Source: a virus
Direction: 5' to 3' (one strand)
Length of the DNA: 64,000 bases
Virus record (IMG/VR): IMGVR_UViG_3300017774_006254
Coordinates: 97,503 to 161,502 of that record
Positions 21,744 through 48,655 of this stretch are shown here, piece by piece. The position numbers and the translations under genes were made by a program. Each line of letters starts with the position of its first letter. The first letter of the stretch is position 1. The notes below the pieces were generated by a model, which was not told the origin of the DNA, did not search any database, and saw only the letters and a list, made by a program, of their open reading frames with translations.

Positions 21744-22109
21744 GGGCGTGAAAGGTGTCGACGGAGTGACTGGAGACCGTGTTGCGTGCAGGGGTTGATC
21801 GGCTGGCCCCTATATCAAGCCGATCATCGTAGATGCGAACGAAAGCAACTACGCTCGCGCCGCGCAAGCAGCCTGAGCCGTTTGGTGAAGTAGGCGGCGG
21901 ACTTCATCGGGCGTCATTTAGCCGAGGCAAGCTTGTTTTGTATCCTCAGGATTCAAGCCCAAGGCTGTTCATCTGAAGATTGGTGGAGGAGTGACCGTCA
22001 CTCCCGACCGGGCCGCACCAGCTGAGAGCGGTACTCTCGAACAGGTGATACGCACGTAGACGCACGGAATTTGGCATTTCGGACCCGGGTTCGACTCCCG
22101 GCACGTCCA
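21744..22109 (+). ncRNA. ssrA: tmRNA
   Basis: Acceptor GGGCGTG/CACGTCC-A with G3.U70, T arm CCGGGTTCGACTCCCGG, tag ORF 21835-21876 ANESNYARAAQAA*. Confidence 0.95.
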
Positions 22110-33279: not shown

Positions 33280-33632
33280 CAGTTTGCCTTGGCAGCGTCC
33301 GGCTCTGGATCGGGTTCTGATGCAGGCTCTTCTTGAAGAAAGATGAGGTCTACGTCGATGGGCAGCGCACAGATGCTTCCTGGAACGTCGACGAGAGCGT
33401 AGGTTGTTCCTCCATTACCAGCGAGCCGGGTGAACCCGACGATCTTTCCGTGAGTGTGCGACGTGTCGGACAGACGGCAGAACACTGCCTGCCCGGGTCG
33501 GAGGCACCGGTCGTCTTGCTCTGGGACGACCTCTTCTTCGTGTTCGAGTGGAGGGGCGACCTTCCGATCTCTTGCACGAAGGAAGAAAGCATCTACCGCG
33601 GAAACGAGCTTGATGATGGAGGACTTCAGCAT
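33279..33632 (-). CDS. Hypothetical protein
   Basis: 117-aa ORF. Confidence 0.6.
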   Translation of the reverse strand: MLKSSIIKLVSAVDAFFLRARDRKVAPPLEHEEEVVPEQDDRCLRPGQAVFCRLSDTSHTHGKIVGFTRLAGNGGTTYALVDVPGSICALPIDVDLIFLQEEPASEPDPEPDAAKAN

Positions 33633-33633
33633 G

Positions 33634-34038
33634 TCAGCGTCCGTTGTTGTATTCGGCGGCGGCCGTTCCGGAGTACGCGGCGTTCGAGAGGAGGAACTGA
33701 CCCTTCCAGTCCCAGTCGTCCATCACGAGCGTCTGCACCTGGTCAGACGTGAGTTCGACCGTCTCTCCCGTGTGCATGTGGAGCATCTTGATGGCGGTGT
33801 CGTAGACCTTGGTGTGGTCCTGCGGTTCTGTCGGTGTCAGCCACAGCTTGAATGTCCCGCCGTTCTTGATCGTTTCGTTGAGCGAGGCTGTGTGAACCGC
33901 GAGCAGGGCGGCACACTTGCTCAAGTAGCCAGCTCGGGCCTCCTGCACGATCTTGACGTGCTTCTCTCGGTTCTCTCTCAGCGCCTTGAGGGTGGTCGCC
34001 GTGGAGGCAGTGATCTTCATTCCATTCAACACGCGCAT
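33634..34038 (-). CDS. Hypothetical protein
   Basis: Phage-type ORF (LRENREKH..P.DHT..YD.AIKML..D.WDW). Confidence 0.7.
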   Translation of the reverse strand: MRVLNGMKITASTATTLKALRENREKHVKIVQEARAGYLSKCAALLAVHTASLNETIKNGGTFKLWLTPTEPQDHTKVYDTAIKMLHMHTGETVELTSDQVQTLVMDDWDWKGQFLLSNAAYSGTAAAEYNNGR

Positions 34039-34101
34039 TGTTCTCTCCAAAAAAAGACAACCACGCGTTCGAGCATTGGCTCGTCCAGGTGGTTGTCGAA
34101 A

Positions 34102-34163
34102 TGGAGCTTGGCGGAGTCGAACCGCCGAGAAGGTGCTTGTGACACCGACTTCCTTTTAGCCCC
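34102..34163 (-). ncRNA. Mini tmRNA-like tRNA-like domain with Ala identity
   Basis: GGGGCTAAAAGGAAGTCGGTGTCACAAGCACCTTCTCGGCGGTTCGACTCCGCCAAGCTCCA: G3.U70, A discriminator, T arm, no D stem. Confidence 0.65.
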
Positions 34164-34277
34164 ATAGGCGACCGAAGCGTTCGTACCCGCACGCCCCGGT
34201 CTGTATTGATCAACTTTTCAAGGGTTGATGCTCTCTTAGAGATTCCACATCCGGCATGGAAACGCTTCAGATCTAAG

Positions 34278-34353
34278 TGATCGCGCCTTACCACTTGGCC
34301 ACCCCGACATGAAGAGAGAGTCGGGGACTGGGTTCGAACCAGTGTCTCGATCA
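34278..34353 (-). ncRNA. Circularly permuted tRNA-like domain #2 (YrlA/Y RNA-like)
   Basis: T arm ACTGG-TTCGAAC-CCAGT, looped acceptor CCCCGAC/GTCGGGG, D arm GCC-AAGTGGTAA-GGC, closing TGATCG/CGATCA. Confidence 0.75.
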
Positions 34354-34434
34354 AGAGTCGTTTCGTAGATGATGCTTCGTCAAAGAGCGTCGAGATTGTC
34401 CACTACAGATTTAGGATCAGGTTCACCTTTCGTT

Positions 34435-34521
34435 CGACGCTTCGCTTGCCTATGCCGTTCGGCTACTTCTCCCCAGATTGGAGAAGGAAGGACTTGAACC
34501 TCCAAATTTGGCGTCGCGTCG
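34435..34521 (-). ncRNA. Circularly permuted tRNA-like domain #1 (YrlA/Y RNA-like)
   Basis: T arm GGAGG-TTCAAGT-CCTTC, looped acceptor CTTCTCC/GGAGAAG, D arm GCC-GAACGGCATA-GGC, closing CGACGC/GCGTCG. Confidence 0.72.
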
Positions 34522-34576
34522 TTTTAGATTGAGATTGGTGGTCTTTTAGCGACGCGCGTGGCGCCGCGTAGTTGGT

Positions 34577-35317
34577 TCATCCAAGCAGGAAGTCGAAGAT
34601 GACGTCGGACATCTTCTTCTCGTCGACTTCGATGAGGTTTGCTCGCTCGCGAGCTTCCTTCACGGACTTCATCAGGAAGTCGGTCCTCTGAAGGATCGCG
34701 GTCTTGTGACTCTGCACGATCGCGCCGCTCTGCGCGATGGTCTTCCACGTGCCGACGGTGATGTCCTCGTCGATCAGCTGGGACTGAGCTGGGTGCTCTT
34801 TCGTGGGAGGCACAAGGACGATGGGCTTCTTGATCTTCTTCGTCTTGATGGTCTCGATGGGCTTGGTGACGTAGACGCGCTCCACAGCGTCGTACTCCCA
34901 TCGCTGAGCAGGGTCGAGCACTGGGAGCTTCTCCACGAAGGTGTGGATGTCGGAAAGCTGCTTCTCCAAGAACAGAAGCGTTGGGACCGGCACGTCCTTG
35001 ATCATCACGACGCCGCCGGGGCCGAGGATGTCCGCCATGGTCTTTGTGTTGCCGACGTCCTTCGTGAGCGTGATGTCGAACAGCTCGCGCTGCCTCTCCT
35101 TCACCTCGGCGAGAGCGTCCATGACTCGAATCGACACGAACTTGGACTCGGGCGGGTACTTCTCGCCGTCTTCTCCCTTCGGCTCGTACGTTTTGATCAT
35201 GCCGGTCACGGCGTCAGCACGCTGGAGGAGGACGTGCTCCTTCGACAGTTCCTTGTAGGCGCGCGTCTTGATGTCGCGCTCGACAGCCACGATCTGATTC
35301 AGCTTCTTCTTGCTCAT
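34577..35317 (-). CDS. Conserved-looking hypothetical protein (KLNQI.AVE type)
   Basis: ATG at 35317; sits between tRNA-Lys and the tRNA-mimic RNAs. Confidence 0.8.
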   Translation of the reverse strand: MSKKKLNQIVAVERDIKTRAYKELSKEHVLLQRADAVTGMIKTYEPKGEDGEKYPPESKFVSIRVMDALAEVKERQRELFDITLTKDVGNTKTMADILGPGGVVMIKDVPVPTLLFLEKQLSDIHTFVEKLPVLDPAQRWEYDAVERVYVTKPIETIKTKKIKKPIVLVPPTKEHPAQSQLIDEDITVGTWKTIAQSGAIVQSHKTAILQRTDFLMKSVKEARERANLIEVDEKKMSDVIFDFLLG

Positions 35318-35350
35318 GAGATTGAAATTCCTTGTTGTTCGCCGCAGCGA

Positions 35351-35423
35351 TGGGACGAGCGGGACTTGAACCCACATGTTGCGGATTAAAAATCCGCTCC
35401 TCTACCAATTGAGGTATCGCCCC
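35351..35423 (-). tRNA. tRNA-Lys(TTT)
   Basis: D arm CCTC..GAGG, anticodon arm GCGGA-TTTTTAA-TCCGC, T loop GGTTCAAGTCC; U1:C72 mismatch. Confidence 0.88.
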
Positions 35424-35444
35424 AGGGCCAGAGGCCCTTCGAGA

Positions 35445-35783
35445 TCAGAACGAGACGACGACGTGCGTTGTGACCTTGGGGACCACGCGCTCACCCTTGA
35501 TGATGAACACGTCCTTCTTCAGGTCGTCGGCGGAGATCTTCAGATCCTCCATGCACGCTTGAAGCGCCGACTTTGTCGCGCACTCGTGTGCTTCGTAGCT
35601 CGTGACGACGCTGATGATCTCTCCGGCGTCGTCGACGACGTCCTGACGGGCCGCTGGCTTCATGAGCCAGTACGACGTGCGCCGCGTCTTCTTCTTCTCG
35701 TCGCTCTTCTCGCCGTCAGAGCCGCCGCCGTCTGTCTCTTCCGCGCTTCCGGTCTCAGTGTTCAAAGTCTCTTCTTCCGACAT
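35445..35783 (-). CDS. Hypothetical protein
   Basis: 112 aa, GGAGAG RBS. Confidence 0.7.
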   Translation of the reverse strand: MSEEETLNTETGSAEETDGGGSDGEKSDEKKKTRRTSYWLMKPAARQDVVDDAGEIISVVTSYEAHECATKSALQACMEDLKISADDLKKDVFIIKGERVVPKVTTHVVVSF

Positions 35784-48556: not shown

Positions 48557-48655
48557 CGGAGGGTACGAGGGTTGAACTCGCACACGGTTTTCACGTGTCC
48601 AGAGCCTCGCGCCCATGCGCTGCGCTCACGACCGTTACCATTCCGGCAACCCTCC
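48557..48655 (-). ncRNA. tRNA-Ser-like RNA with aberrant extended anticodon arm
   Basis: Acceptor GGAGGGT/ACCCTCC-G, D arm CCG-GAATGGTAA-CGG, long variable arm CACG..CGTG, T arm GCGAG-TTCAACC-CTCGT. Confidence 0.75.

Follow-up and report, generated by a model that had tools for sequence, protein, structure and literature searches.

According to the accounts given in PMC4131195 and PMC11915505, which cite Mao et al. 2009, the tmRNA of mycobacteriophage DS6A is of a "TLD only" type that consists of just the tRNA-like domain (TLD). The same accounts describe a DS6A-like molecule as a strong inhibitor of tmRNA, whether or not it can be charged, and suggest that it perhaps titrates SmpB. Minihelices that join an acceptor stem with G3·U70 to a T arm are charged by AlaRS in vitro (Francklyn and Schimmel 1989, in the form cited by PMC9976931), and the alanine determinants listed for bacteria are A73, G2-C71, G3·U70 and G4-C69, plus G20 (PMC9976931). 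The YrlA RNA of M. smegmatis, whose 7-bp acceptor stem resembles those of modules A and B described below, is cut by RNase P and CCA-tailed in vivo (PMC4201824), and tRNA-like signals that act in cis on RNase P/Z are documented as the t-elements of plant mitochondria (PMC1920247).

Here we analyze a 62-nt element of a 161-kb phage that the original prediction called a mini-tmRNA. Our preferred reading, to which we assign a probability of roughly 0.4, is that the element is a tmRNA-like alanine "top half" that would be cut out by tRNA-processing enzymes, trimming the RNA upstream of it and freeing a small RNA that is probably chargeable.

The DUF7873 locus and its noncoding gap

The window makes up the right-hand 64 kb of a phage genome from IMG/VR that is 161.5 kb long and has terminal repeats, and all window coordinates are collected in Table 1. 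The RNA genes that standard tools detect are limited to tRNA-Arg in two copies, tRNA-Lys and a one-piece tmRNA, and none of the tRNA genes of the phage encodes CCA. Between the DUF7873 gene and the next gene lies a noncoding gap of about 540 nt that contains, in 5′ to 3′ order, the permuted modules A and B, a hairpin, a leader, the element and a terminator. The element is the last unit of this gap and is followed directly by the strong terminator, which a simple scanner missed because its loop is long. As there is no promoter-like site in the region 33600-35700, the units downstream of DUF7873 are likely co-transcribed.

The mechanical DUF7873 ORF (266 aa) extends to 35377, into the tRNA-Lys gene (35349-35424). 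Because homologs are 243-250 aa long, the true start is likely the ATG at 35317. An AlphaFold2 model of the protein (mc92a91167dc4) is confident (pLDDT 87.6) and consists of long antiparallel helices and long beta hairpins. A Foldseek search of the model against the PDB gave no match. VIA returned generic helical matches (Z ≤ 9.3), with FemA and SerRS helical arms at Z 7-8; we set this likeness aside as generic coiled-coil matching that is too weak.

Modules A and B have the YrlA topology of a T arm, a closed acceptor stem-loop and a D arm. Among 84 DUF7873 loci drawn from cultured actinophages and IMG/VR, 79 have one to three permuted modules 50-350 nt 3′ of the gene, and such modules occur almost nowhere else. 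Numerous DUF7873 loci with permuted modules lie within phage tRNA arrays. The Rfam YrlA model gives sub-threshold matches in Phendrix and Racecar, and a Ro60/TROVE gene is absent from the four genomes checked (this phage, Phendrix, Racecar and NiceHouse). We also observed a hairpin whose loop contains CGGAUAUG and that recurs 3′ of the second permuted module in distant phages, at 34243-34261 (minus strand) in the window and at about 3690-3730 in L004, 3625-3645 in L005 and 3725-3755 in L006; the window version of this motif is CGGAUGUG, and that of L007 is CGGACGUG.

Table 1. Coordinates of the features of the locus and of the RNAs with which the element is compared.
Feature	Source	Position	Strand	Description
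DUF7873 gene	window	34577..35317	minus	Pfam PF25283, E 1.4e-84; 246 aa from ATG 35317
Permuted tRNA-like module A	window	34448..34503	minus	T arm, CTTCTCC-A, 6-nt loop, GGAGAAG, D arm
Permuted tRNA-like module B	window	34285..34343	minus	T arm, CCCCGAC-T, 10-nt loop, GTCGGGG, D arm
Conserved hairpin	window	34201-34170	minus	fold −21.9 kcal/mol
Leader GCCUAU	window	34169-34164	minus	6 nt, directly 5′ of the predicted RNase P site U34164/G34163
Element, 62 nt	window	34102..34163	minus	161-kb phage, sequence and fold; GGGGCUA-AAAGGAAGUC-(GGUGU CACAA GCACC)-UUCUC-(GGCGG UUCGACU CCGCC)-AAGCUCC-A
Element, acceptor 5′ strand	window	34163-34157	minus	GGGGCUA
Element, GG-containing linker	window	34156-34147	minus	AAAGGAAGUC, in place of D arm
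Element, stub hairpin	window	34146-34132	minus	GGUGU CACAA GCACC, 15 nt
Element, lower linker	window	34131-34127	minus	UUCUC
Element, T arm	window	34126-34110	minus	GGCGG UUCGACU CCGCC
Element, acceptor 3′ strand	window	34109-34103	minus	AAGCUCC
Element, discriminator A (A73)	window	34102	minus	
Intrinsic terminator	window	34049..34097	minus	9-bp outer stem and inner hairpin (34097-34056), T7 (34055-34049); RNAfold −25 kcal/mol
One-piece tmRNA of the phage	window	21744..22109	plus	ARAGORN and Rfam, 112 bits
Ser-type tRNA-like RNA	window	48557-48655	minus	long variable arm, no anticodon loop; recovered by the top-half pattern scan
DS6A TLD-only tmRNA	JN698994	28478-28560		83 nt; 43.2 bits on RF00023
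L038 TLD-only tmRNA	L038	3569-3653		85 nt; 62.9 bits, above the 47-bit cut-off
L158 TLD-only mini	L158	206-282	minus	77-80 nt; 34.2 bits; IMG/VR phage tRNA array
L162 TLD-only mini	L162	3283-3350 plus about 15 nt	minus-strand read	Actinomadura genome
L153 tmRNA-like RNA	L153	1501-1635		135 nt; 41.7 bits; 341-kb phage

The element and its likeness to tmRNA

As originally predicted, G3·U70, A73, a T arm and the absence of a D stem are all present in the pair table and the fold of the element, and the fold bears out a 15-nt hairpin in place of about 300 nt of tmRNA. The acceptor stem has 6 bp (G1-C72, G2-C71, G3·U70, G4-C69, C5-G68 and U6-A67) with an A7·A66 mismatch at the seventh position, and the T arm is perfect, all five of its pairs being G-C or C-G. 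The minimum free energy is −24 kcal/mol (z = −2.6 relative to shuffled sequences), and the fold has no 7-nt anticodon loop either, the loop of the stub being 5 nt long.

A strict "acceptor + T arm" pattern has seven matches in the real genome (three tRNAs, the Ser-like RNA, the element and two likely chance matches) compared to 0.55 per shuffled genome. Because shuffled genomes give 0.55 matches each, this pattern is not decisive by itself. What lifts the element above chance is its intergenic site near two tRNA-like modules and a terminator, the compensatory changes in L007 described below and the match to the tmRNA model. By sequence and fold, the element is a genuine tRNA-type top half: it stacks an acceptor of the alanine type on a T arm and has no part for decoding.

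It has neither the D arm nor the anticodon arm of a cloverleaf; the tRNA model RF00005 gives no match on it at E ≤ 10, and ARAGORN is silent there too. The Rfam YrlA model (RF02553) likewise gives no match on the element, which has the normal order and open ends. Searches of the element region against GenBank phages by megablast and blastn returned nothing relevant. A coding reading of the region was rejected, as the stop-free frames are not colinear between the window and L007.

The closest resemblance within the genome is to the phage's own tmRNA, which reads CTAT/GGGCGTG-AAAGG-TGTCGAC ... CCGGG TTCGACT CCCGG CACGTCC A, compared to CTAT/GGGGCTA-AAAGG-AAGTCGG ... GGCGG TTCGACT CCGCC AAGCTCC A in the element. 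The parallel between the two 5′ ends that had been claimed is correct and extends to the CTAT leader, and the T loop TTCGACT is identical. Of the alanine determinants that are listed for the bacterial acceptor stem (A73, G2-C71, G3·U70 and G4-C69), the element carries all four, and it has the tmRNA-family combination of G3·U70 with A73, a TΨC-type T loop and a GG-containing D-loop analogue without a D stem. It departs from the family in the conserved core, where the model wants GGaUUCGAC on the 5′ side and GGAC abutting the T arm and the element has GUCGG and CUC at these sites. The 3′ GAC/CAC before the T arm is kept by DS6A, L038, L158, L153, L162 and the phage tmRNA, but not by the element.

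On the Rfam tmRNA model RF00023 the element scores 18.7 and 27.2 bits, below the gathering score of 47 bits and in a range that ordinary tRNA-Ala genes match on the same model (22-28 bits), and apart from a weak P2a the alignment covers only the acceptor and the T arm. It is the second-best match to this model in the genome. Because of the sub-cut-off score, the missing core and the limited alignment we do not file the element as a member of the tmRNA family; it may still function like one. The spacing of its 5′ side (acceptor, AAAGG, N, GUCG) is a trait of tmRNA TLDs and not of tRNAs. A pattern made from this signature (acceptor, AAAGG, 1-3 nt, GTCG) retrieved the TLD-only minis of L158 and L162, which marks the signature as a TLD trait and argues for descent: the 5′ half of the element looks derived from the tRNA-like domain of tmRNA.

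These minis and the L038 and L153 RNAs show the forms that such RNAs take elsewhere. The L038 RNA (GGGGACG ... UAUCGAC-P2 ... CUGGAC-T arm-CGUCUCC-A) lies a few hundred bases past the DUF7873 cassette, in the order DUF7873, one permuted module, tRNA-Lys and, just after the latter, the RNA itself; its 33-kb contig contains no full tmRNA. The L158 mini adjoins two tRNA-Ala genes. The L153 RNA has the 5′ side AGGGGCG-AAAGG-UUUCGAU, and GCA GCA AGC ATC TGA is a candidate for a very short frame in it.

The original prediction also proposed a decoy for SmpB and EF-Tu, and the strongest alternative to our reading is of this kind: the element would be a DS6A-type TLD-only mini-tmRNA acting in trans, alanylated or uncharged, that binds SmpB and/or EF-Tu. 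We consider this rather unlikely, and the same holds for its outcome, in which the RNA would compete with tmRNA or enter stalled ribosomes without tagging. The alanine positions (G3·U70, A73, G2-C71 and G4-C69), the absent D stem and the T loop are those expected of such a molecule, and the element shares its 7+5+7 layout, AAAGG and GUCG included, with the phage tmRNA, L158, L162 and L153. Yet it lacks the UUCGAC/GGAC core, and its alignment to the model involves no more than the acceptor, the T arm and a weak P2a. The rank as second-best tmRNA-model match, where the tRNA model finds none, is offset by a score (19-27 bits) within the ordinary tRNA-Ala range. DS6A provides a precedent for a TLD-like inhibitor of tmRNA (as related in PMC4131195 and PMC11915505), and the 85-nt TLD-only unit of L038 (62.9 bits) lies near its DUF7873 cassette, but the L007 ortholog has neither alanine identity nor a tmRNA-model match. 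In addition, the phage has a full tmRNA and its genome has no SmpB gene, so that its own tmRNA would be starved too. The mini-tmRNA claim thus holds for the alanine set, the TLD-like 5′ spacing and the precedent of DS6A and fails on the UUCGAC/GGAC core and the 47-bit score, and the decoy proposal retains the inhibition of tmRNA by a DS6A-like TLD and is weakened by the missing core, the non-alanine L007 ortholog and the phage's own tmRNA.

The L007 ortholog and the tRNA slot

The only ortholog of the element that we found is a 78-nt unit in a 298-kb phage (L007:3728-3805). Its DUF7873 protein is 57% identical to that of the window, and it is the closest relative whose DNA was compared; closer DUF7873 proteins are P0001 (97% identical), P0002 (87%) and P0003-P0007 (62-65%). 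The element and the L007 unit have common flanks (CTTCGGYCGCCTAT/GGG ... TTTC) and the same T loop, TTCGACT. The L007 unit has the acceptor GGUGAGC/GCUUACC and the T stem GCUGG/CCAGC, and comparison with the window reveals changes on both sides, with pairing kept, in acceptor pairs 3, 5 and 6 and in T-stem pairs 2 and 3. Acceptor pair 4 has a one-sided change (G-C to G·U), and pair 7 is A·A in the window and C-G in L007. The stem of the upstream hairpin covaries as well (GACCG/CGGTC versus GGGCCG/CGGCCC), and the CGCCTAT leader is the same in L007.

At the identity positions the L007 unit has U3-A70, G4·U69 and discriminator C73, so the alanine set is lost, and the tmRNA model RF00023 gives no match on it. 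Its lower half, a 4-bp hairpin with a GUGG loop and a tetraloop-capped arm, is unlike that of the element. As judged from these two sequences, the top half and its place are conserved between the window and L007, but alanine identity is not. The pairs were compared directly; because MAFFT misaligned the element with L007 and the minis, no covariance model of our own was built.

Wider searches gave little beyond this pair. An 18-mer common to the window and L007 was searched in IMG/VR, where the remaining matches are all chance, and a search with the leader and T-loop pattern returned mostly ordinary tRNAs and one permuted tmRNA (L145). A metagenome scan for close DUF7873 relatives identified two loci only, at 44-45% identity.

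Of the distinct DUF7873 loci, 68 in number, 20 have a tRNA or tRNA-like unit whose start lies 47-68 or 112-165 nt past the last permuted module. The window element (122 nt) and the L007 unit (133 nt) group with the tRNA-Val, Lys, Leu and Arg of other phages, which are positioned at 112-129 nt. In the other 48 loci this slot contains neither a tRNA nor a tRNA-like unit, and the upstream RNA thus has no general need of one. The slot data would be explained just as well if the element were simply the following RNA gene of a tRNA array. Tidy tRNA-shaped units in which tetraloop-capped stubs replace the anticodon arms also occupy the slot past the permuted modules (L064:1530-1595, which equals L069, and L060:3904-3974; z −2.7 and −3.8, respectively), and ARAGORN missed them. 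Since related phages have ordinary tRNAs in this slot and cut-down phage tmRNAs are already known, we regard the element as an unusual variant of known things.

Alternatively, the element could be all that is left of a decaying tRNA-Ala or TLD gene within a phage tRNA array and be functionless. Such decay would account for the A7·A66 mismatch, for the loss of the D and anticodon arms and for a distribution in which the element is found in two phages only and the unit in the slot varies among relatives. We consider it improbable, as the acceptor and T stems are kept paired by compensatory changes between the window and L007, the lower half has been remodelled into tidy hairpins, and the flanking hairpin and leader are conserved. 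Slightly more remote is an extended scheme in which the element, as a 62-nt stub that derives from tmRNA but lacks the core for SmpB binding, would rank as the smallest alanine acceptor so far seen in nature. The phage would make it together with the Ser-type RNA as a charged non-decoding RNA, either an aminoacyl donor or a decoy for tRNA-sensing or tRNA-attacking host factors, and co-transcription and RNase P processing would couple it to the double tRNA-mimic RNA of the DUF7873 locus. Least probable of all is that the element and the Ser-like RNA are non-decoding aminoacyl carriers for a non-ribosomal enzyme or decoys for tRNA-attacking or tRNA-sensing host factors, which would suit the presence of two anticodon-less, probably chargeable tRNA-like RNAs and neighboring tRNA mimics in one genome and the tidy anticodon-less units of other phages (L060, L064/L069), but no FemAB-type transferase was found in the genome, no partner was identified and L007 lacks alanine identity.

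Proposed processing from the DUF7873 transcript and comparison with known systems

Our preferred reading, a processing unit cut out of the DUF7873 transcript, begins with a noncoding RNA 3′ of DUF7873 in which the two YrlA-like mimics, the element and the terminator would be co-transcribed. The element would occupy the slot that relatives fill with ordinary tRNAs; its linker GG could make the elbow contact, and its stub hairpin would replace the anticodon arm. RNase P, 3′ trimming and the CCA-adding enzyme require only an acceptor/T-arm stack. Host RNase P would cut between U34164 and G34163, and this one cut would both make the 3′ end of an RNA of about 410 nt, a double tRNA mimic capped by the conserved protective hairpin, and free the element as a mini RNA. 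The trailer with the terminator would then be trimmed and CCA added to give an RNA of about 65 nt. Because the full acceptor-stem alanine set is present, AlaRS probably charges the released RNA, which once charged would be unable to decode or tag. Co-transcription, RNase P cleavage, CCA addition and charging are the steps that we infer.

The position of the element is consistent with such processing, as an acceptor/T-arm unit that abuts a longer RNA in the slot where true tRNAs serve, and the cutting and CCA-tailing of M. smegmatis YrlA suggest that the host machinery accepts tRNA mimics. The role common to the element and the L007 ortholog would be processing in cis, with a trans role of the alanine identity specific to this phage. 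Against a processing role, the terminator could end the upstream RNA unaided, and a role in cis only leaves it unexplained why the alanine set is complete and why the 5′ spacing is still TLD-like.

In phages, tRNA-like RNAs overlooked by standard annotation tools appear to be common, and the element brings three kinds together in a single transcript unit: permuted mimics of the YrlA type, an alanine stub that resembles tmRNA, and the logic of an ordinary tRNA array. If it is charged, it is a natural AlaRS substrate of the minihelix type and would show to what extent a tmRNA-like domain can be reduced. If it serves as a cutting signal and no more, bacterial viruses use tRNA-like punctuation to finish a structured RNA, like organelles and MALAT1. 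Either way, RNase P cleavage at one site offers a handle for mapping the DUF7873-associated RNA.

The TLD-only tmRNA of DS6A resembles the element in being phage-borne, in having G3·U70, A73, a T arm and no D stem, in lacking a tag frame, pseudoknots and an encoded CCA, and in a linker with GG followed by GUCG. It differs in its length of 83 nt, its P2 helix, the GGUCGAC and GCAC beside the T arm and a score of 43 bits, whereas the element has 62 nt, a 5-bp stub, neither GAC motif and 19-27 bits. The element is also tied to the DUF7873 RNA cassette, and DS6A is without that cassette. The tRNA-Ala minihelix shares the G3·U70 acceptor stacked on a T arm, but it is a laboratory construct, while the element occurs as a gene in nature and has a GG linker and a stub hairpin in addition.

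The RNA called mascRNA reportedly lies at the 3′ end of MALAT1, a placement said to come from Wilusz et al. in 2008. As in the element, t-elements (PMC1920247) and mascRNA are tRNA-shaped units without a working anticodon that abut the end of a longer RNA, and in their scheme an RNase P/Z cut would make the RNA end and release a tRNA-like RNA of about 60 nt. They are organellar or eukaryotic, whereas the element has the full alanine set, and its processing is only inferred. The CDS-less tmRNAs of jakobid mitochondria and the plastid forms of about 65 bp (PMC3590771, PMC11915505) are, like the element, TLD-only with alanine identity kept; they are organellar, mostly two-piece and co-occur with SmpB, and we liken them to the element without a claim of shown homology. 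Finally, the YrlA-type modules (RF02553; PMC4201824) are the immediate neighbors of the element, and both are tRNA mimics of a kind that tRNA enzymes recognize, but the modules have a circularly permuted order in which the acceptor stem is closed, and the element has the normal order and free ends.
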